From: a virus
DNA length: 64,000 bases
Virus genome (UHGV): UHGV-0036582
Direction: 5' to 3' (one strand)
The notes beneath the pieces are model-generated. The model had not been told where the DNA came from. It saw only the letters and a program-made list of their open reading frames with translations, and searched no databases. The translations under genes and the position numbers were made by a program. This document shows positions 7,629 to 25,669 of the stretch, piece by piece (position 1 is the stretch's first letter; every line of letters begins with the position of its first letter).

Positions 7629-8396
7629 TTATGCCGCGCTAACACTATGTTCAGTCCTAACCACTCCAACCTTCACAAAAGGGCTACCGTAGCTTGGTGG
7701 CTTCTTGATTAATTTGCCAACATACAGTTTTCTAATATGCTCATCGGCTATTCTGCCAACAAATTCATAACGTTTTGTGTCGGGGCCAAGAGCTATATCC
7801 CTTGTAAAGTACTGCTGAGAACCGGCTTTGACCCAGCATTCAATCTGATAAACTTCCATTATCAGCCCACCATATGTAGCGTAGGCATATTTGAGATTCT
7901 CGTCTCTTGGAACCTTTGCCCATACGCCACGCGTAGCTTCATATAATGCCAGAGCGGACATTCCTGACTTGTAGGTGCTGTTTAGCAGGAAGGCAAGACC
8001 GGCGTGCTCAGGAGCAATTTCAGTTTCCTCTTGCAGCACTAAGTGATGGTAGGCGTCCAGTGATATTCTGCCCATCATGGAACCACTTCCTCGTACCTTA
8101 TTCGTAAGCTCTCCGACCCCCATAAGGTCGATGCATGTCGCCTCAACAAGTTTGGCTGTGGTTTCATCCATACCATGACGAAGTATATCTATGCCTAATT
8201 TTTTATTAGCCAAAAGTTCTTTGATCCGCATGGATTTGGGAGAGTCATCGGGATACTTGATGTGATCGAGACAACGAGTCGATTTGCCTTTTCCTATGTA
8301 AAACGGTCTTTTCATCTTGTCTTCTGTATCATAGAGACAGTAAACATAGTATTTAGCCTTATCCAATGATCTCGCGTATACCGATAAATCGTCCAT
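7629..8396 (-). CDS. GIY-YIG nuclease-domain protein with an uncharacterised C-terminal domain
   Basis: N-terminus YYVYCLYDTEDKMKRPFYIGKGKSTRCLDH matches the GIY...YIG...R...H pattern; about 150 aa of unrecognised C-terminal sequence. Confidence 0.6.
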   Translation of the reverse strand: MDDLSVYARSLDKAKYYVYCLYDTEDKMKRPFYIGKGKSTRCLDHIKYPDDSPKSMRIKELLANKKLGIDILRHGMDETTAKLVEATCIDLMGVGELTNKVRGSGSMMGRISLDAYHHLVLQEETEIAPEHAGLAFLLNSTYKSGMSALALYEATRGVWAKVPRDENLKYAYATYGGLIMEVYQIECWVKAGSQQYFTRDIALGPDTKRYEFVGRIADEHIRKLYVGKLIKKPPSYGSPFVKVGVVRTEHSVSAA

Positions 8397-10886: not shown

Positions 10887-12068
10887 ATGAGCCTTTATGT
10901 TATATCAACATTTAGGTTGGTCACAATATTGCCTGTTAAAAGTGGAATTATCGTGAGCGAGCTGAAAGAGCTAATTGCCGAATTAGATTTTGAACAATGG
11001 TTGGATACTGAAGGTATCGTTTATCGACGTGGAGGCGTGAGTGCTCGCGGTCGTGAAGTGAATATCAAGGAATGTCCGGTATGCGGCAGCTCCAACTGGA
11101 AGGTATATTTCAATCTGACCAGTGGCGTCGGCAAATGCTTTGCTGGTGATCATCCCGAAGAGATTCAGTTCAATAAGCTGGTCTTCCTCAAGCACTACAG
11201 CGGCAAATCACGACGACAGTTCGAGGAATATGTGCAGAACGCTCTTCTTTCCCAGGGGTGGGCACCAAAGAAAGAAGAGATAGTGCTTGCAAGCACAGTC
11301 GAGTTAGAGGGACCAGTTGCCCTCCCTCGTCATTACGAACTTCCTATAGATGGCCGTCTTCCAGACTATCTGGTTGAACGAAACATATCGCCTGAAATGG
11401 CAAAGTATTTTGACCTACGATACTGCGTCGAAGGCAAGCACGCTTATGTAGATCCGTATACAGATCAGGTAAAAGGACAGATATTCGATATGCGAATACT
11501 CATACCGGTTTACGATCTGGATGGGGTAATGAAGACATTTCAGGGACGAGACATTACCGGTACAGCAGAACGTCGCTACCTCTTTCCTATGCAGCTTCCA
11601 GCTTCAGGTAAGTTTCTCTACAACGGCCATAATGCAGTCGGCAAACAGACGGTAGTTGTCTGTGAGGGGGCGTTCGATGTTATGGGGGTCAAACGAGCTA
11701 TTTTTGACGAAGAAACATTACGTGATTACGTGGAACCAATAGGAACGTTCGGGATGCATCTATCTGGCAACACCACTCAGGATGCAGAAGATCAGCTGGG
11801 CGCGTTCCTGACGCTCAAGGCGCGTGGATTACGTAATGTGATCATGATGTGGGATAGTGAAAAGCAAGCTATACGCAACACTATGGCCGCAGCTAGGCGA
11901 CTCACAAGTATTGGCCTTAATGTCAAAGTTGCGTGTTTGGGCGAGGAAGGACTCGACCCCGGCGATGCGACACCGGGGCAGATTATCAAAGCCTACTATT
12001 GCGCAAAACCTTATTCACGACAGCTTGAACTCTTAAGCAAGGTGAAAGGCATTGCAGCACTAGTTTGA
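10887..12068 (+). CDS. DNA primase (zinc-ribbon plus Toprim)
   Basis: Start set at the ATG at 10887, preceded by aaaagaaaaacacATG; Zn-ribbon CPVCGSSNWKVY...C..DH; Toprim-like VVVCEGAFDVMG; lies directly after the helicase. Confidence 0.7.
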   Translation: MSLYVISTFRLVTILPVKSGIIVSELKELIAELDFEQWLDTEGIVYRRGGVSARGREVNIKECPVCGSSNWKVYFNLTSGVGKCFAGDHPEEIQFNKLVFLKHYSGKSRRQFEEYVQNALLSQGWAPKKEEIVLASTVELEGPVALPRHYELPIDGRLPDYLVERNISPEMAKYFDLRYCVEGKHAYVDPYTDQVKGQIFDMRILIPVYDLDGVMKTFQGRDITGTAERRYLFPMQLPASGKFLYNGHNAVGKQTVVVCEGAFDVMGVKRAIFDEETLRDYVEPIGTFGMHLSGNTTQDAEDQLGAFLTLKARGLRNVIMMWDSEKQAIRNTMAAARRLTSIGLNVKVACLGEEGLDPGDATPGQIIKAYYCAKPYSRQLELLSKVKGIAALV

Positions 12069-13097
12069 ACCAGTATTAGTCACGTAAACATTGACCGAAA
12101 ATGATTTAACTTCTGTGTTGAAGTTGTCAGTCATTACCGCGAGGTAGGCATTCTTGGTATCTCTGAATTGCTTCAGGATGATTTGAACGTTATCGGTGCA
12201 AACAAACGAGGTAGCCAGATTGCCTCCTTTCTCTGAAAAATCCTTTAGGAAAGTGCAGTCAATTTTGCCATCATTAGCGGTGAAGGTGGCATCATCACCC
12301 TGCCAGGTAAATGTTGCGTTAACGCCTTTATCAATGGATTTAGCAATAAGTCGCTGAGTGGAGGATTTTGCTTTAGATCTTGCTGCTGATGGTTGGTATT
12401 TACCGCTTTCTTTTAGTTCTGCAATGTAATCACAGCCATTTTTATCTTCTTTATCGCAAGCTGCCTGATAAAGCTCAGCTGCTTTTTTATAATCTTTTTT
12501 AACCCCTTCACCATACTCATACATAATGCCAAGATTCGCCAATGCAGATGCACTGCCTAGTTCGATTCCTTTTTTATAATACTCTATTGCCTTTTTGTAG
12601 CTTTTTGGCACGCCTGCGCCAACATAATATAACTGTCCTAAATATGACGCAGATTCAGGGTCGCCAGCCTCTACTGCAAGTTTGTGATATTTCAGGGAAA
12701 GTTTTTGGTCTTTCTTACCCGCAAGTCCTTTATGATAAATAACACCCAGATTGTGATAAGAGTTGCCTCCAGCTGCATCACCAGCTTTCTTAAAGAGTTC
12801 CTCTGCCTTTTTGAAATTTTTATCAACCCCATACCCAAGGGCATACATTATACCTAGAGCATTAAACGCTTCTTTGTTCCCCTTAGAAGTCGCCAGTTCA
12901 AGCCATTTTCTGGCTTCATCGTAGTTTTTTTCGACACCATGAATACCTTTCATATAGTCGATACCTAAAGCACTCTGTGACTCAACGTCGCCTGCTTTTG
13001 CCGCATCGATCAGCTTTTGTATTTCATAGGCATGTGCACTCCCCGAAACAAGTAATAGCGACAACATAAAGAAAGATATTGGTTTGAAATGTTTCAT
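12060..13097 (-). CDS. Secreted Sel1-like repeat protein
   Basis: Signal peptide MKHFKPISFFMLSLLLVSGSAHA; repeated units G..(A/S).(N/Y/A)LG..Y..G.GV.K(N/D/S)Y.(K/E)A..(W/L/Y) typical of Sel1/TPR-like repeats; C-terminal about 110 aa non-repeat. Confidence 0.7.
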   Translation of the reverse strand: MKHFKPISFFMLSLLLVSGSAHAYEIQKLIDAAKAGDVESQSALGIDYMKGIHGVEKNYDEARKWLELATSKGNKEAFNALGIMYALGYGVDKNFKKAEELFKKAGDAAGGNSYHNLGVIYHKGLAGKKDQKLSLKYHKLAVEAGDPESASYLGQLYYVGAGVPKSYKKAIEYYKKGIELGSASALANLGIMYEYGEGVKKDYKKAAELYQAACDKEDKNGCDYIAELKESGKYQPSAARSKAKSSTQRLIAKSIDKGVNATFTWQGDDATFTANDGKIDCTFLKDFSEKGGNLATSFVCTDNVQIILKQFRDTKNAYLAVMTDNFNTEVKSFSVNVYVTNTGSN

Positions 13098-18092: not shown

Positions 18093-19355
18093 TTACTTTG
18101 CATAGTCGCCCAATTTTAATATTTCGCGCTTATATTCATTAACCATGCTACTGGATTCAGTATAAATTCGATTTAAAAGATTATCGTTATCTTTATTTTC
18201 ATTTATCTTAATTAGTGCTAATTTATATTCATAGTCATCAAATGCCACAATTAAATGGTGGCCTGGGATTATATCTTCGTCACTCTTAAAGTATATATCT
18301 TCAAGTATGTAATCTAGTTGATTAGATTTTCTTTTCTCGATGTAATCTTCAGCCATAGCTATTACATCATTCCTGTCATTTAACCTGTTTTTTTCGGAAG
18401 GCACATCTTCGTAATGTTGCACGATTGAACAACCAATAAGGCGTGGGATGTAAACGTCAAAATGAGTAACTCTATCATTCGCGGTTTTAAGTAGTTCCTC
18501 AAAGTAGTTTCTTACATGTAAAGGCAACTTCTCAAAGTAATCATTAATTATAGGAGAACAAGGAGTTTTATAATTCATAAGAACCGACGGTACGAGCTTT
18601 GGGTGTCGAAACATCCAGTCCCTTTTAACGTCCGATGGAACATAATAACTTTTAATGATATTATCAAAATAATTTATCATTCGAGATTTGAATATTTTGT
18701 TGAATCTAAGGTTTATGAATGTATCCAGATAAGGCATATTTGAATAAGCATCATCAAAAAATATTTCATCATTGAAAAAATCATATTTATTCAATAAACA
18801 ACACAGTTTTTCCGAATTAATATGTTCACAATAATCGATTTTTAATCCAAAGATAGCAATGATCAACTTCATCTGAGGTGGGATTTTAAAAATTAATTGT
18901 GACACATACGCTCTTTTTTCCTTGAGACATTCCCCATCAATATAAAATGAACCATCCACATACTCAAATATATTAATAATATGCTTCACATACTGTATTA
19001 CCTCATGCTGTCTTACCAATGGATAATATAGTCTATGTAACTCATCGCTGTTTAAATTAATTTTGTGTTTATCGATAATTTGTTTTGCAAGAAGACATAA
19101 CTCATCATGTTGATTTAATAAGGAATCAAACCATTGTTTAAATGCACTCTTTCGCATTTCGAACAATGATTCAGTTGTTAATTGAAGGGCTGAAAAAGCT
19201 GCTTTTGCACTTTTTCTCGCTTCGTAGGCATTCCATGCTGTTGCTATAAAAGCAAATGCTGTAGCCAATGTTCCAACAGTTTGACCATTTAAAACAACCC
19301 AATCCCAAAAAATGACGGTGAGCAGTAGTATAATAATGAAAATTAAAAAAGGCAT
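18093..19355 (-). CDS. Low-GC membrane-anchored protein of unknown function (two N-terminal TM helices, about 350-aa cytoplasmic domain)
   Basis: 420-aa ORF, visibly far more AT-rich than its neighbours; TM helices FLIFIIILLLTVIFWDWVVL and LATAFAFIATAWNAY; Asn/Tyr/Phe/Lys/Asp-rich remainder with no recognisable catalytic motif. Confidence 0.6.
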   Translation of the reverse strand: MPFLIFIIILLLTVIFWDWVVLNGQTVGTLATAFAFIATAWNAYEARKSAKAAFSALQLTTESLFEMRKSAFKQWFDSLLNQHDELCLLAKQIIDKHKINLNSDELHRLYYPLVRQHEVIQYVKHIINIFEYVDGSFYIDGECLKEKRAYVSQLIFKIPPQMKLIIAIFGLKIDYCEHINSEKLCCLLNKYDFFNDEIFFDDAYSNMPYLDTFINLRFNKIFKSRMINYFDNIIKSYYVPSDVKRDWMFRHPKLVPSVLMNYKTPCSPIINDYFEKLPLHVRNYFEELLKTANDRVTHFDVYIPRLIGCSIVQHYEDVPSEKNRLNDRNDVIAMAEDYIEKRKSNQLDYILEDIYFKSDEDIIPGHHLIVAFDDYEYKLALIKINENKDNDNLLNRIYTESSSMVNEYKREILKLGDYAK

Positions 19356-19985: not shown

Positions 19986-21089
19986 ATGAAAAATAGCTTT
20001 GACAGAGCACGCGCTGCGGAGAACACCTCAAAAGAGGCGATAGAGTATCTCGAAAGAGCATCTCAAATGCAGGCCGTTATGATCTCCCAGGTCAGCAATG
20101 ACATGAGATTCTCGGACGCATTCATGTTATTCACTCGCTTATCTCTGCTGATAACCAGACGTCGGCCAGAGATCGCTGTTCATTGTATTTTGATACATGT
20201 TTTGCCGCACCTTGCCGATGTAAAAGTAAGTGACATTAATAGGTTCATGGTGAACCAACTGGTCAACCCACTAATACTGGATGGCAAAATTGTTATGGGC
20301 CGCCGCGTTTTCTCTCTGATGAAGCAGTTCCTTAGCTGGTGCGCCTTCCAGGGGATGATAGACGTGTCACCGTTAAACGATATGTCACTTAACAATGTTG
20401 CCGGTGGCGCAAAGCCCACACCTCGCGAGCGGAAGCTGACCGACGCAGAGGTATGGGTGTTCTGGAATATATGGGACTACTTCAATGTGTGCGCTGGTAC
20501 AAAATGGGCGGCCAGGCTATGTCTTGTATCCGCAAGACGACCTGACGAAGTACTGCGGGCTAAAAAAAGTGAGTTCAACCTCCAGCGTGGGGTTTGGAAT
20601 CAAGGCAAGAGAAACAAATCAGCCCGTGAGCATTCTCTGCCTTTAAGCACATTAATGCGCACATGCATTGAAGAGTTATTCGAATATGGTAAAGGCAGCC
20701 AGTGGCTTGTGCCTTCGAATAAAAAAATCGGGAATGATCTTCCGATGTCTAAAGTGGCAATAGCCCAGGCATTACGCCGTATCCTGGAACGACCAGAACT
20801 GATGGAGCTTGAGCCATTTACACCCCGAGATTTGCGTCGTACTGCGCGTAGTTACTTCCCAGCATTAGGCATAAGCCAGGAGGTATCACGCAAAATCATG
20901 AACCACAGTCTTGAGGGGATAGATCGGGTCTACGACCGGCACGATTATATGGACGAGATGCGAGACGCCTTAGAAAGTTTCTCGACGTACATCGCATCAA
21001 TCGTAGAGCAACCGGATTTAGACGAAATTGACCACAAATTCAAGGGAGATCGTCTATCAACAGAGCTTATTCGTGTAAATTTTTCATAG
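19986..21089 (+). CDS. Tyrosine recombinase (integrase or resolvase family)
   Basis: Segments consistent with the catalytic R..K..H.R..H..Y set: VSARRPDEV, PRDLRRTARS, MNHS, RVYDRHDY. Confidence 0.75.
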   Translation: MKNSFDRARAAENTSKEAIEYLERASQMQAVMISQVSNDMRFSDAFMLFTRLSLLITRRRPEIAVHCILIHVLPHLADVKVSDINRFMVNQLVNPLILDGKIVMGRRVFSLMKQFLSWCAFQGMIDVSPLNDMSLNNVAGGAKPTPRERKLTDAEVWVFWNIWDYFNVCAGTKWAARLCLVSARRPDEVLRAKKSEFNLQRGVWNQGKRNKSAREHSLPLSTLMRTCIEELFEYGKGSQWLVPSNKKIGNDLPMSKVAIAQALRRILERPELMELEPFTPRDLRRTARSYFPALGISQEVSRKIMNHSLEGIDRVYDRHDYMDEMRDALESFSTYIASIVEQPDLDEIDHKFKGDRLSTELIRVNFS

Positions 21090-21470
21090 AGACTTTATGG
21101 CCTCAACAACCTTTTGTGATGCGCCTTTCTCTTTACCGAATCGCTCGTTATATGCAGCAAGAACCTGTTTTTCGTCCTCGTTAAGAGGCGCAGTGCCTTC
21201 TTTGTATAAAAATGCTGCGAGTTCAGGTTGGCGTTCTTCCAGCACCATCATCATAAGACGACTTGGCTCAATACCCAGCGCCAGCGCCAGCGGACGAACC
21301 TTATCGATAGGCAAAGGAATTTTGCCACTTTTAATTAAAGAAAGGTTGTTGGCATTTTTATAACCAATAAGTCTAGCTATTTGGGCCTGACTCATAGGTG
21401 AGGATTCAATCAGCCCTGCGATAAAAGCAGCATAGCGACTTTCTATAAATTCAATCTTGTTGTCAGACAT
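21084..21470 (-). CDS. Helix-turn-helix DNA-binding protein, possible transcriptional regulator
   Basis: 128 aa; HTH-like segment SQAQIARLIGYKNANNLSLIKSGK; convergent with the recombinase gene. Confidence 0.5.
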   Translation of the reverse strand: MSDNKIEFIESRYAAFIAGLIESSPMSQAQIARLIGYKNANNLSLIKSGKIPLPIDKVRPLALALGIEPSRLMMMVLEERQPELAAFLYKEGTAPLNEDEKQVLAAYNERFGKEKGASQKVVEAIKSL

Positions 21471-21721: not shown

Positions 21722-21934
21722 ATGAACACCACTATTTCCAGCCTAATCGCTCTTGAGATCGGACACGTACAAAAATTAGCTGATGAATGTGTAGCTGACA
21801 TTCTCACCGATCTACCGAATGAGCAGATTCAGGTTGGTGTGAATGACACAACTGGCTTTATATTCGAACTTAACAACAAACGCTTCACGCTTCTCAATAC
21901 CGGCTCCGGGTCTTTAGCCGTCAGAATCTGTTAA
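21722..21934 (+). CDS. Hypothetical small protein
   Basis: 70-aa ORF after an AT-rich intergenic region. Confidence 0.3.
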   Translation: MNTTISSLIALEIGHVQKLADECVADILTDLPNEQIQVGVNDTTGFIFELNNKRFTLLNTGSGSLAVRIC

Positions 21935-22032
21935 CCCCTCTTCTCCCTGCGCGAATGGCTTAGTTCCCTGTTCGCGCAGTGCTACATTAAACATACTAGT
22001 AAATAATTTGTTTTCATAACAAAGGATTAGCC

Positions 22033-24132
22033 ATGTCTAAAAAACGTTCCATCAAAGAGGTTCAGGACTTCCGTGACAGTGTAAAACGAGTAGTCGCTCT
22101 CCTTTCAGGTAAAAACATCCCTGTTGCAGAACGAGGGGACGACGCTTATGTACGCTATAACGATGATGGAGAGCCAATTCTCGTAAACATCCCATCAATC
22201 CCGGATAACGCAACACCAGCATTGATGAATGCTGTGCGCGGATTTCTCGATCATGAGGTTGCTCACATTTTGTTTACCGATATTCATGTGTCCAACAAAA
22301 TGAGAGAAAAAGGACGCGTTCCTTCCTGGTCGCTATGGAATGCCTTAGAAGACGTGTTTATCGAGCGAAAAATGGGGCAGGTCTTTAACGGAACAAGACG
22401 TAATCTGATGGCAACTCAGCGCCTTATAATCGAAAAAGTCTTTAAACCAAAGGCTTCAGAGGCTATTACTTATTGTGGCAAAGATCAGCGCGCGCTTTTT
22501 CTAAACTTCTTTCTCTGTCCGGTTGTAAGAGCCTGGGATGGCCAAGCACCGTTCGTAGATTTCATGGATGAATACTGGCCTGTCATTGAGAAACCAATTT
22601 CATTATTAAAAGAACATGGTATCGATGTGGCCGTGCGTAACATGTCTTGCACCGGGGATTGTTTAAAGGTGGCTGCGACCATCGCTAAGATCCTCAAAGA
22701 CACAGAAAGTGAAAGCAAAGGTAAGGAGTCAGCTCCGGGAAAAACTTCCGATCCTTCAGACGCTGATCACGCGGATTCCTCTGGAGAAGGCGATGAAGAT
22801 CACAAGACACCCGAATCGTTAGATAATCACATATCTATTAAAGAAAATTCAAAAGGTAAGCACAAATACGATAATAACAACAGTGATAATTCAGATAACT
22901 CTGAATCATCAGAAACAATATTCGATGATACAGAAAATGATAAAGAGGTATCAGATTCTGGTGCTTCTGATAACGCGGCGTCAGAAGCATTGACCACTGA
23001 CCACGAAAAAAGAAAATCGACAGAAGACGGCTCTTCAGACATTCCAACTCCGTCAAAAATGAGTCTGGAAGAGGCTTTAGAGGAGTTGGATAGCATGGAA
23101 GATGAAGTCGGAGGCATGACAGAAGATGCGCTATCCGAAACGATTAAAAGCGAGTTAACAGAAAGCTCGAAAAGCGAATACAGGCCATACAATCGCTCAT
23201 ACGACTTCATCGGCTCGATTGATCAGGCAGAAGCCCATATCAAACGGCTTATTAAAACATTCTCCGATATTGATTTAGGTGGATATCCAATCAGCCGTTA
23301 TCGCATCGTTCCTGAAGGCAACCAACTCTTCGACAAATATATTGAAAAGCACCTTTCGTCAGGTGTTTCGTCGACGCTGGCAAAAGACCTGGAACGTGCA
23401 ATAGCAAGCAGAAACAGAGTTCAGTTTATACCTGGCCAGCGTCGGGGGCGCATTCATGGTTCAAGTATCTACAGATTAACAATGAATGATGATCGCGTGT
23501 TTCGTAAAAAAGAAGAATCTAAAGCCGTTAACGCCTGTGTTCAACAAGTGATTGATTTATCAGGTTCAATGAGTGGTATAACGATACAATTGGCTCTTGC
23601 AAGTGCATATACCATCGCCGATGCCCTTGATCGAATAAATGTTCCCAACATTATCACCGGCTTCACTACATTTGGTAGTCATATGGCGGCAGGAGAACTT
23701 AAGGCTGTCAAGTATGAGTTCTCTCGCTTTGAATCTTTAATGCTACCTATCATCAAAAATTGGAATGAAAAGGTAAATTCTCGCGAAGTTCGCTCACGTA
23801 TGGGGTGCGTAGGCTACACATTCCCACTTCTTAATAACGTGGATGGTGAAAGCATAGCCAGCCTTGCATCGTTATTTTCCGGTCGCATGGAGGACAGGAA
23901 GATCATGCTTGTTCTGAGTGATGGCGCGCCGTGGGCTGTTGGGAGAGGTTTTGACGCTCATTTGCGTTCGGTTGCGAAGCAAATTGAAACGCAGACTGAT
24001 ATTGATTTGATGGCAATTGGCATCATGACTGACGCACCGGAGAGATTTTACTCAAATCATGCCCTGGTAACGAGCGTTGATAGTCTTGGTTCATCTGTAG
24101 TTACTGAACTATCTCGTATCATTTTAAAGTGA
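22033..24132 (+). CDS. vWA-domain protein (CobT-like) with acidic low-complexity linker
   Basis: 699 aa; MIDAS-like motif DLSGSMSG; central Asp/Glu/Ser-rich tract; followed by an AAA+ ATPase gene, the usual CobS/CobT-like pairing seen in large phages. Confidence 0.65.
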   Translation: MSKKRSIKEVQDFRDSVKRVVALLSGKNIPVAERGDDAYVRYNDDGEPILVNIPSIPDNATPALMNAVRGFLDHEVAHILFTDIHVSNKMREKGRVPSWSLWNALEDVFIERKMGQVFNGTRRNLMATQRLIIEKVFKPKASEAITYCGKDQRALFLNFFLCPVVRAWDGQAPFVDFMDEYWPVIEKPISLLKEHGIDVAVRNMSCTGDCLKVAATIAKILKDTESESKGKESAPGKTSDPSDADHADSSGEGDEDHKTPESLDNHISIKENSKGKHKYDNNNSDNSDNSESSETIFDDTENDKEVSDSGASDNAASEALTTDHEKRKSTEDGSSDIPTPSKMSLEEALEELDSMEDEVGGMTEDALSETIKSELTESSKSEYRPYNRSYDFIGSIDQAEAHIKRLIKTFSDIDLGGYPISRYRIVPEGNQLFDKYIEKHLSSGVSSTLAKDLERAIASRNRVQFIPGQRRGRIHGSSIYRLTMNDDRVFRKKEESKAVNACVQQVIDLSGSMSGITIQLALASAYTIADALDRINVPNIITGFTTFGSHMAAGELKAVKYEFSRFESLMLPIIKNWNEKVNSREVRSRMGCVGYTFPLLNNVDGESIASLASLFSGRMEDRKIMLVLSDGAPWAVGRGFDAHLRSVAKQIETQTDIDLMAIGIMTDAPERFYSNHALVTSVDSLGSSVVTELSRIILK

Positions 24133-24227
24133 ACAAAACAGCCTTAATGATAAGTAACCACTTACGATAGATAATGATATATTTATATAAGAAGTTGAAC
24201 GCTCATTAGAGAACAAAGGAAAAACGC

Positions 24228-25463
24228 ATGACGACTACTGCACTGCAAAATGAAAAAAATCCTTCTGATTACCTTGTTTGCAAGTGGTGCGGCAAATCAT
24301 TTCACTATTTTAAGTCCCATGTAGCCAATGGTAATTGCGAGGGCATTCCTGAGTCAGTAAAAGATGCCGATCCTGACACCGTACTGAAAATGTACACAAC
24401 GCAGTTTCCAGATGAACCAACGCTATCGAAAAAGGCACTTGATGCAATTCAAGCTAAACGTGCCGAGCAAAAAAGCGAAATGGCCAAATCTTCTGGCTTG
24501 ACCAGTAGCCCTGGCTACACAGGCACAGTTGAGTACAAGACAGATCTGGTCGCAGCTCACGAACTGCTAAACGTAACGGTGGAAGAACTCGGAACAAAAC
24601 GTGGGACGCCGCTCATGGTTAGCGTCAACGTCAATACGCCGTATCCAGAGTTCGTTCCCGAAGTGAAGAAAGGCTACGTATATGGCGACTTCGAACTGAT
24701 CAAAGATATTTTCATGATGCTTGAACTTGGCATACCTGGCTATTTGTGGGGTCATGCAGGAACAGGCAAATCGTCATTGCCTACACAGCTATGTGCTTTG
24801 CTCAATCGTCCGTTGATCCGTGCCCAACATACAGCATCAATGGAAGAGGCACATGTTACGGGGCAAATTCTGGCGCGTGATGGCTCTACGTATTTCGAAC
24901 CTGGCTTGCTTGCGCTCGCAATGAAGCATGGCTGGGTTTACCTCGCAGATGAATACGACTTTGCGTTTCCACAAATTCTTGGCGTGTATCAGCCAGTGCT
25001 GGAAGGTGAAGCGTTGGTCATCAAAGAGGCAACTCCAGAATGGCGTCGCATTACTCCGCATGAACGGTTTGCTTTCATTGGCACTGGCAACACGAACGGA
25101 TCTGGTGATGAAACCGGCTTGTACCAGGGTACAAACATCCAGAACGCCGCGAACTTTTCGCGTTTTGGCATCGTTTCGAATGTGAAATACATGAGCAAAG
25201 ACGCAGAGATCAACATGTTGACAAATGCAGGCATCGTGGATGAATACGCTGAAAAGATGGTTAAGTTTGCCGGTATCGTTCGCGATGGATACGAAGAACA
25301 CCTTATTAGTCAGCCAATTGGCCCTCGTGAACTTTTGTTGTCGGCCAAGATTGGAATGATGCGAGGCGACTTTGTGACAGGTATTGAGCGTTCTTTCATT
25401 AACAAACTCCCTTCAGCTTCTGCACAAGCGGCTCGTGAAGTTGTTCAAAAAATATTTGGTTAA
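24228..25463 (+). CDS. MoxR/CobS-like AAA+ ATPase with N-terminal zinc-ribbon
   Basis: Walker A GHAGTGKSS, Walker B-like WVYLADEYD; N-terminal CKWCG...GNCEG cysteine cluster. Confidence 0.7.
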   Translation: MTTTALQNEKNPSDYLVCKWCGKSFHYFKSHVANGNCEGIPESVKDADPDTVLKMYTTQFPDEPTLSKKALDAIQAKRAEQKSEMAKSSGLTSSPGYTGTVEYKTDLVAAHELLNVTVEELGTKRGTPLMVSVNVNTPYPEFVPEVKKGYVYGDFELIKDIFMMLELGIPGYLWGHAGTGKSSLPTQLCALLNRPLIRAQHTASMEEAHVTGQILARDGSTYFEPGLLALAMKHGWVYLADEYDFAFPQILGVYQPVLEGEALVIKEATPEWRRITPHERFAFIGTGNTNGSGDETGLYQGTNIQNAANFSRFGIVSNVKYMSKDAEINMLTNAGIVDEYAEKMVKFAGIVRDGYEEHLISQPIGPRELLLSAKIGMMRGDFVTGIERSFINKLPSASAQAAREVVQKIFG

Positions 25464-25465
25464 TC

Positions 25466-25669
25466 GTGCGTAAAGGATGTTTCGGCTCTCTTATCGCTGC
25501 TTCTGAAACTGGTAAGGCTTGTCTGGTGTGTCCAGACAAGCCCGATTGTCACCAATCAGCAAAAGAAGTTGCGATTTCGATGCATGGGAAGTTCGTAGGC
25601 TTCCCCAATGACAAAATCAAAAAAACCAGAAAGGTAAAAACACATGAAGGCACTGATGGTTCGAACTGA
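25466..25669 (+). CDS. Hypothetical small Cys-rich protein
   Basis: 67-aa ORF with C..C...C.C..C pattern; overlaps the dnaE start. Confidence 0.3.
   Translation: MRKGCFGSLIAASETGKACLVCPDKPDCHQSAKEVAISMHGKFVGFPNDKIKKTRKVKTHEGTDGSN

Follow-up and report, generated by a model that had tools for sequence, protein, structure and literature searches.

The stretch of DNA analyzed in this study (hereafter, the window) comprises 64,000 nt of the virus genome UHGV-0036582. Two long open reading frames (ORFs) located on its plus strand at 22033-25463 and separated by a 95-nt gap encode a CobT-like protein with a vWA domain and a CobS-like AAA+ ATPase of the AAA_5 type, as the initial annotation had proposed. 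It had also described such pairs as common in large phages and functionally unsolved. They are indeed widespread in tailed phages, and the literature offers only speculation about a role in vitamin B12 supply. The positions of all genes, domains, and motifs are listed in Table 1. The 699-aa CobT-like adaptor matched the Pfam families CobT (aa 9-296, E 1e-24) and CobT_C, covering the vWA domain (E 1e-82), with an additional weak VWA match, and was assigned to phrog_1576 over residues 5-699 (E 7e-297). It aligned with Brucella CobT (PDB 9uka_G) at E 9e-17 as a single sequence and at E 9e-58 as a family profile, the latter alignment spanning from the segment preceding the vWA domain to the C-terminal end. 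The 411-aa CobS-like protein matched AAA_5 over residues 173-293 and phrog_249 over residues 11-410 (E 1e-106), and was aligned with Brucella CobS (PDB 9ujv_A, E 1e-25) over aa 142-411. In total, 1,636 homologues of the CobS-like protein were found, and the nearest solved ATPases after CobS were midasin, CbbQ, and NorQ. Because the family matches are very strong, chance is not an issue for either of the two long ORFs.

Table 1. Genes, domains, and motifs of the CobT/CobS-like locus and its flanks in the window.
Feature	Position (nt)	Strand	Basis
Helix-turn-helix (HTH) repressor-like gene	21084-21470	-	weak HTH_19 match, under the Pfam cut-off
70-aa ORF, first gene of the rightward operon	21722-21934	+	phrog_2627
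CobT-like adaptor gene, 699 aa	22033-24132	+	Pfam CobT and CobT_C; phrog_1576
N-domain, aa 1-222, predicted M48-like zincin fold	22033-22698	+	
HEVAH (HExxH), aa 74-78	22252-22266	+	translation
E106-D107-x3-E111, candidate third zinc ligand	22348-22365	+	helix after the active-site helix
Acidic low-complexity linker, aa 223-382 (approximate bounds)	22699-23178	+	composition
Putative equivalent of the CobT shaft, aa ~462-499	23416-23529	+	alignment to 9uka_G
vWA domain, aa 489-698	23497-24126	+	Pfam CobT_C
CobS-like AAA+ ATPase gene, 411 aa	24228-25463	+	Pfam AAA_5; phrog_249
N-terminal Cys/His finger CKWCGKSFHYFKSHVANGNC, aa 18-37	24279-24338	+	translation
Walker A (aa 175-182) to Walker B (D241-E242)	24750-24953	+	Brucella CobS alignment
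67-aa Cys-rich ORF, GTG start	25466-25669	+	phrog_6337, E 3e-45
Phage DnaE (Pol III alpha), 1,172 aa	25644-29162	+	Pfam PHP, DNA_pol3_alpha, finger, HHH_6

The N-domain of the adaptor contains an HExxH motif, followed on the next helix by a group of acidic residues, of which E106, D107, and E111 may serve as zinc ligands according to gluzincin topology. The residues H74, E75, H78, E106, D107, and E111 were invariant in two alignments of 44-51 sequences reaching down to ~27% identity. A HMMER search with the N-domain against 1.84 billion cluster representatives (50% identity clustering) yielded 1,139 relatives, and among the best 150 of them HExxH was kept in 126 of the 127 full-length proteins. 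The motif was also present in distant viral versions, including the 'peptidase' of cyanophage Syn33 (HEVGH...LEDARIEK), the ICP2-like phage JSF27 (HECYH), roseophage CRP-810 (HEAGH), Gordonia phage Woes (HEIGH), and Rhizobium phage RHEph10 (HEVAH). In cellular CobT it was absent from all 76 full-length proteins, taken from 76 alphaproteobacterial genomes. The profile-profile alignment of the viral and cellular N-domains (hhalign) placed cellular RGIGDSMALRR opposite viral GFLDHEVAHIL, with the replacements H to S, E to M, and H to R and with the downstream E..E partly kept; its E value was 7e-4, but its probability was only 26%. These comparisons suggest that the peptidase domain of cellular CobT is dead and that in the viral proteins strong selection maintains a metal-binding and catalytic signature in full. 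The contrast between viral CobT with an intact HExxH and cellular CobT that has lost it appears to be a new point, as the literature examined contained nothing on the HExxH of phage CobT and no knockout or biochemical data. We propose HExxH...E in the adaptor N-domain as a hallmark of the viral family, this criterion being our own and not a published one.

The structure of the N-domain was predicted using AlphaFold2. The single-sequence model was unusable (predicted local distance difference test (pLDDT) 43), and the prediction repeated with the 44-sequence alignment reached a pLDDT of 92 and a predicted template modeling score (pTM) of 0.88. The predicted elements are a helix, a three-stranded sheet (strands within residues 31-53), a helix at 62-81 with H74, E75, and H78, and a helix at 96-117 with E106 and E111; in this confident model, their order is the zincin order. 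The Foldseek search of the model against a PDB copy that may predate the CobT entries gave no significant match, and Pfam scans of 44 N-domains with E values up to 5 detected CobT only and no peptidase family. The assignment of a zincin fold is thus suggested in part by analogy with the published description of the Brucella CobT N-domain. Compared with the M48/M56 zincins (Ste24/ZMPSTE24, HtpX, and BlaR1), the window N-domain has no detectable similarity to Pfam peptidase families and is soluble, not membrane-embedded, and its peptidase activity is putative. Several short representatives of 218-375 aa among the N-domain search results consisted of this domain only, and the tblastn matches in Stenotrophomonas phage BUCTxx99 (H120) and in the Salmonella Typhimurium record AB571791 (H121) extended over the N-domain (aa 1-200) only. 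The zincin-like domain may therefore also be encoded by itself or by a split gene, a situation reported for the haloarchaeal virus HHTV-2.

The catalytic and binding motifs of both proteins are intact. In the vWA domain, the MIDAS (metal ion-dependent adhesion site) motif DLSGS is found at aa 508-512; the CobT-like family alignment showed no variation at D508, S510, and S512 and hardly any at N602 and D630, and these five residues correspond to Brucella D422, S424, S426, N518, and D546. The segment at aa ~462-499 is the probable equivalent of the CobT shaft, judged by the 9uka_G alignment and the published shaft boundaries (Q373-R413). The ATPase motifs were assigned by counting by hand through the Brucella CobS alignment: Walker A GHAGTGKS, G175-S182 (Brucella G71-S78), Walker B D241-E242 (D141-E142), sensor-1 N288 (N186), Arg finger R312 (R210), and sensor-2 R367 (R271). 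All of them were invariant in the CobS-like family alignment.

The long acidic linker noted in the initial annotation is present, but its description as unusual did not hold. The linker comprises 160 aa, is rich in Asp, Glu, Ser, and Asn, and contains 47 D+E versus 15 K+R (29% D+E, net charge ~ -32). Among 51 diverse viral-type homologues, the linkers were 106-339 aa long (median, 183 aa), which makes that of the window the 12th shortest, and its acidity is lower than the family median of 39% D+E. With its 699 aa, the window protein is shorter than most of its nearest SSU5-like relatives, which usually measure 743-790 aa and combine conserved flanks with a linker hypervariable in both length and sequence. 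Brucella CobT is likewise composed of an N-domain, a disordered linker of ~90 aa, and a C-domain (bioRxiv 10.64898/2026.07.21.739949), and in the alignment with the window protein its linker proved acidic too. Viral linkers are about twice as long as the cellular CobT linker (~94 aa), a trait of the whole viral family. By these alignments, an acidic linker is a defining trait of CobT and is ordinary for the viral family.

The cysteine cluster reported at the N-terminus of the ATPase was likewise recovered, but it is neither unusual nor, as far as its residues indicate, the zinc ribbon that it had been taken for. It follows the pattern C18-x2-C21-x4-H26-x4-H31-x5-C37, in which one CxxC knuckle is succeeded by His, His, and Cys; the second CxxC or CxxH knuckle of a zinc ribbon is absent from the ATPase N-terminus, where C18 and C21 form the single CxxC. 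From its pattern, the cluster is a C2H2/C2HC-type finger. The family consensus is CxxC-x4-H-x4-H-x4/5-(H/C), with the last ligand being His in most homologues and Cys in the SSU5 clade. In the CobS-like family alignment, which reaches 44% identity, C18 was invariant and C21 and H31 were at least 90% conserved. CxxC was present in 103 of 113 full-length viral-type homologues and CxxC-x3-6-H-x3-5-H in 95 of them. The finger was absent from the CobS genes of 59 alphaproteobacterial cobST loci and from the CobS of cyanophage Syn33 and the ICP2-like JSF27. On this distribution, it marks the SSU5/Nickievirus/RHEph10 supergroup and not this element alone. When the N-terminal 146 aa of the ATPase were used as a query, only fragments of its own family and no other architectures were found.

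The pair belongs to the viral cobST cluster (phrog_249 and phrog_1576), as adjacent co-oriented genes of a tailed phage, and is near-identical to that of its SSU5-like relatives. It shares domain order, HExxH, MIDAS, and (near) adjacency of the genes with cyanophage cobS and 'peptidase', ICP2 ORF41/42, and haloarchaeal virus CobS/CobT; it differs from the cyanophage and ICP2 versions by its Cys/His finger, and from the roseophage and Gordonia phage versions by gene order, which is reversed in the latter two. In domain architecture the pair was thus identical to the widespread phage pair, an outcome that the initial annotation had itself named as speaking against its proposal.

On nucleotide identity, the window is an SSU5-like phage-plasmid of Escherichia coli. 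Over the 4.5 kb around the pair, identity was 95-98% with Escherichia phages CMS-2020a, Cyrano (pLF82), and PhiR41_1 and 75% with Salmonella phage SSU5. For the pair region, a nucleotide identity of 95-98% was also found with about 190 E. coli plasmids, and the matching plasmid records number 465 in total (Escherichia, Enterobacter, Yersinia, Salmonella, Citrobacter, and others). The pair was found in 219 of 5,426 complete E. coli genomes, being plasmid-borne every time, where RefSeq names its members 'cobaltochelatase CobT-related protein' and 'AAA family ATPase'. To the left of the pair lie, in this order, genes for a helicase, a primase, a ligase, tRNAs, a glutaredoxin, an integrase, and a divergent HTH repressor, followed on the right by the 70-aa ORF, the CobT-like and CobS-like genes, the 67-aa Cys-rich ORF, DnaE, a gp32-type single-stranded DNA-binding protein, a 5'-3' exonuclease, and RecA. 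The pair stands at the head of this rightward operon, which leads out of the repressor region into the replication genes and, from its gene arrangement, is probably an early/lytic operon. The counterpart of the HTH gene in phage Cyrano is annotated as 'putative repressor', and loci L082 and L083 have the same divergent arrangement of the HTH gene and the CobT-like operon; the operon may therefore be controlled by this repressor-like gene. Promoter and terminator scans around the pair gave background-level results. Between the 70-aa ORF and the CobT-like start, a 9-bp inverted repeat, CTGCGCGAA-n14-TTCGCGCAG, was observed at 21949-21980 (+); no T run stands behind it, and it may form a regulatory hairpin.

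The order CobT, CobS, one or two small ORFs, DnaE, gp32, exonuclease, and RecA was kept in metagenomic relatives with CobS ~45% identical, and the same succession, with small ORFs between CobS and DnaE, was observed in Pseudomonas phage ZY21 and Rhizobium phage RHEph10. In the T4-like cyanophage Syn33, the genes are arranged as glutaredoxin, 'peptidase' (CobT-like), two small genes, cobS, one small gene, the gp45 clamp, and the gp44/62 clamp loader, and in the ICP2-like JSF27 the pair lies ~2.6 kb upstream of helicase and PolA genes. The pair is therefore found in or beside the replication module together with three replicative polymerase systems, namely DnaE, T4 gp43 with its clamp, and PolA. 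Because this linkage extends across the three systems, the client of the pair can be assigned, with modest confidence, to phage DNA replication and not to a particular polymerase. The IMG/VR scan with the N-domain profile returned close SSU5-like relatives only (65-99% identity), which did not widen the context sample.

Regarding the neighboring genes, the 67-aa Cys-rich ORF begins 3 nt past the CobS-like stop codon, overlaps the dnaE start by 26 nt, and is unannotated in phage Cyrano. Its four cysteines are C5, C19, C22, and C28, and its motif GC[FY]GSL..C..CP...C is found again in the distant relative L084, where a 167-aa ORF in the corresponding place opens with it (BLASTP E 2e-6). To judge by its position, the 67-aa ORF may belong to the module as a third component. 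The DnaE proteins of the distant relatives L082 (10387-13809), L084 (9739-13083), and L173 (11219-14487) have a C-terminal uracil-DNA-glycosylase-like domain (PF03167); no such match was reported for the window DnaE, whose final ~200 residues are without a Pfam assignment. Further away, a 255-aa ORF at 7629-8396 (-) is a homologue of the anti-phage defense gene PD-T4-3 (PADLOC match near full length, E 1.3e-23). The gene directly following that of the primase encodes a 345-aa Sel1-repeat protein (12060-13097, -; five Sel1 stretches, E 1e-37) and runs on the opposite strand within the otherwise co-directional replication module. The N-terminus of the 420-aa ORF at 18093-19355 (-) is hydrophobic, and neither Pfam nor PADLOC gave a match for this ORF. 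It is located just upstream of the glutaredoxin gene in an island of 34% GC (~45% elsewhere) and is probably variable cargo, since Cyrano has no counterpart at that place.

The closest structurally described system is the aerobic cobaltochelatase (EC 6.6.1.2) of Brucella melitensis. In the cryo-electron microscopy structures of CobSTN, CobS is a hexamer, the CobT shaft Q373-R413 enters the ring pore on nucleotide binding, the CobT N-domain has an M48C-peptidase-like fold and is bound to the small AAA+ subdomain, and CobN is clamped between both CobT domains next to the MIDAS (bioRxiv 10.64898/2026.07.21.739949). The window pair shares with Brucella CobS and CobT (9ujv and 9uka) an AAA_5 ATPase with all catalytic motifs and an adaptor composed of a predicted M48-like N-domain, an acidic disordered linker, a shaft segment, and a vWA domain with a MIDAS. 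The ATPase cores and the vWA domains of the two systems show significant sequence homology, and the N-domains are related via Pfam CobT. The differences are the HExxH...E of the window adaptor, replaced at that position by DSMALR in cellular CobT, a linker of 160 aa versus ~94 aa, and an N-terminal extension of ~100-140 aa with the Cys/His finger, as well as the phage replication operon context and the lack of a CobN partner. No CobN/ChlH-like gene was annotated in the complete genome of the closely related Cyrano, and the scanned subset of the window's large ORFs contained none either. The scores against the NCBIfam equivalogs TIGR01650/TIGR01651 were 6- to 10-fold under the cut-offs (72.8 versus 759 bits for the CobT-like and 86.6 versus 558.6 bits for the CobS-like protein). 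The nucleotide enzymes of the element, class Ia NrdAB and ThyX (Cyrano; NrdA in the window), are B12-independent. Given these scores, the missing CobN, and the B12-independent enzymes, the pair is probably not a bona fide cobaltochelatase.

Taken together, family membership, intact ATPase, MIDAS, and HExxH motifs, synteny, and the absence of CobN from the element incline us, without strong conviction, to regard the pair as a viral-type CobS/CobT motor-adaptor that remodels, and probably cleaves, a replication-linked protein client. By homology with Brucella CobS-CobT, the 411-aa protein would assemble into an ATP-hydrolyzing AAA+ hexamer, and the 699-aa protein would dock on it, with the segment before the vWA domain acting as a shaft that enters the ring pore. 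The client would be held by the MIDAS face of the vWA domain, and ATP hydrolysis would be transmitted to it. CobN would be ruled out as this client, since it is missing from Cyrano and, according to textbook knowledge, from E. coli. The N-domain would be held on the flexible 160-aa acidic leash and would present a complete zincin HExxH...E site of the kind lost in cellular CobT; as this site is retained on a tethered domain, the complex is proposed to capture, remodel, and probably cleave the client. The position of the pair at the head of a presumably early-expressed lytic operon, upstream of DnaE, and its linkage to replication genes in several unrelated phage lineages suggest that the most likely client is a protein, of the host or of the phage, that has to be removed or matured for phage DNA replication to proceed. 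The extra N-terminal finger of the SSU5-group ATPase may bind zinc and tether the motor to DNA or to a partner.

A bolder version of this proposal, which we consider possible but doubtful, holds that viral 'CobT' proteins are active AAA+-coupled zinc proteases, in which the vWA/MIDAS domain would capture the client, the CobS-like ring would pull via the shaft, and the zincin domain on its acidic leash would cut. The cellular cobaltochelatase CobST of alphaproteobacteria would then be a derived, catalytically dead offshoot of an older protease-remodeler, and the many cobS/cobT genes counted as auxiliary metabolic genes in viromes would not be B12 genes. Clearance or maturation of a protein at the phage replication fork might be the task of such proteases, in analogy to SPRTN/Wss1, which work with Cdc48 in eukaryotes.

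Several observations weigh against a motor-adaptor that cleaves its client. Pseudomonas phage ZY21/Nickievirus and representative P0390 stand for at least two viral lineages in which HExxH has been lost, which implies that peptidase chemistry is dispensable in at least some versions. Even where it is present, HExxH could bind metal for structure or sensing without cleavage, and the convergence of H74, H78, and E106 is our inference, the model having been read for the order of its elements only. In true AAA+ proteases the peptidase is located at the pore exit, unlike the CobT N-domain. In the CobST complex, this domain lies at the ring periphery (bioRxiv 10.64898/2026.07.21.739949). Moreover, the window ATPase is 13 residues shorter than Brucella CobS at the C-terminus and is devoid of the alpha10 patch that binds the CobT N-domain, so the docking geometry may differ from that in Brucella. 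The replication linkage is not universal either, as the neighbors of the pair in roseophage CRP-810 and Gordonia phage Woes are mostly hypothetical genes. Finally, what has been published on phage CobS/CobT function amounts to speculation (PMC8651126, PMC3037004, PMC11705849). The ZY21 protein (L088, 4847-6931) has GFLDSEISKVLY in place of HExxH and represents a natural 'dead-peptidase' variant; ZY21 keeps the MIDAS, a CobS-like partner with the finger, and the position upstream of dnaE.

The strongest rival explanation is a non-proteolytic MoxR-type chaperone similar to CbbQO, NorQD, and RavA-ViaA, which would mature or metallate a replication enzyme, such as the PHP-domain DnaE or ribonucleotide reductase, and in which HExxH would be metal-binding or structural only. 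We regard it as unlikely, although all characterized relatives (CobST, NorQD, and CbbQO) are remodelers or metal-insertion helpers and none is a protease (bioRxiv 10.64898/2026.07.21.739949). CbbQO, NorQD, and RavA-ViaA share with the window pair an AAA_5-type hexameric motor and a vWA/MIDAS client adaptor; CbbQ and NorQ are among the PDB sequence matches of the window ATPase, and NorD is a detectable relative of its vWA domain. The conserved neighbor dnaE, the glutaredoxin and ribonucleotide reductase genes of the same element, and the viral lineages that have the pair but no HExxH are also consistent with a chaperone. On the other hand, E75 is invariant although, as the catalytic base, it is unneeded for metal binding alone, and the association of the pair with three polymerase families argues against a DnaE-specific client. 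In addition, the adaptors of CbbQO, NorQD, and RavA-ViaA are without an HExxH zincin-like domain, and their clients (Rubisco, NorB, and respiratory complexes) are absent from the window context.

The initial annotation had also noted that similar pairs occur in predicted conflict systems. The pair could accordingly be a vWA-MoxR defense system carried by the phage-plasmid or an anti-defense device that captures and destroys a host immune protein; we judge this improbable. Pairs of vWA and MoxR proteins are the core of several predicted conflict systems, and the ternary ones (with VMAP, iSTAND, FtsH, or beta-propeller components) resemble the window pair in combining a MoxR-clade ATPase with a vWA protein that has an extra, possibly effector, domain (PMC7159879). 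A protease tethered to a capture domain would fit the destruction of a host defense protein, and defense cargo in the form of the PD-T4-3 homologue is present elsewhere in the element. However, the PADLOC analysis of the four module proteins produced only a spurious DrmE match (E 0.0013) in the low-complexity linker and none for the ATPase, that is, no credible hit. No VMAP, iSTAND, FtsH, or beta-propeller third component was detected among the annotated or Pfam-scanned neighbors, the small ORFs being without a Pfam match. The domain order is the reverse of that in the ternary systems, with the extra domain N-terminal to vWA here and C-terminal there, and those systems are found in multicellular bacteria, whereas the pair is a phage core gene set (PMC7159879). 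It is located inside a replication operon and is syntenic throughout a large phage supergroup and in T4-like cyanophages, unlike hotspot cargo. No positive evidence for a defense or anti-defense role emerged, although an anti-defense protease would be compatible with these observations.

The weakest rival, and in our view a very improbable one, is that the genes are B12 auxiliary metabolic genes whose products would form an active cobaltochelatase with host CobN and raise B12 supply in infection, which is how the literature usually interprets them and has been hypothesized for archaeal and bacterial viruses (PMC8651126), ICP2 (PMC3037004), and an Alteromonas phage (PMC11705849): the clear CobS/CobT homology and intact ATPase and MIDAS motifs favor it, but it is contradicted by equivalog scores far below the cut-offs, by the HExxH that all the sampled cellular CobT proteins have lost, by the embedding of the pair in replication and not metabolic operons, by the lack of CobN in Cyrano, and by NrdAB and ThyX, which need no B12. 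Its host-side premise is also at odds with established knowledge of B12 pathways. To our knowledge, E. coli has no CobN, and its enteric relatives (Salmonella, Klebsiella, and Yersinia) likewise have none; enteric hosts either make no corrin ring or use the anaerobic CbiK route.

The pair is an already known and widely annotated core gene pair of E. coli, Salmonella, Klebsiella, and Yersinia phage-plasmids, but its public names are inconsistent. In Cyrano (L001, 12534-15973), the genes are called 'dimethylbenzimidazole phosphoribosyltransferase' and 'cobalamin synthetase', and in other records 'porphyrin biosynthesis protein'. The Cyrano naming was rejected as a name collision with the unrelated CobT and CobS of Salmonella. 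The name 'peptidase' of the cyanophage Syn33 homologue (L089, 2967-5078), an annotation called a mistake in PMC8651126, may be nearer the truth. The useful part of the present analysis is that the viral adaptor keeps a complete zinc-peptidase signature lost in the B12 enzyme, in an element that has no CobN. The HExxH contrast and the replication-operon context argue against the B12 label. If the signature is functional, the routine scoring of cobS/cobT in marine and gut viromes as B12 auxiliary metabolic genes would be an error, and a widespread, core, replication-linked phage function would be addressable via three residues.

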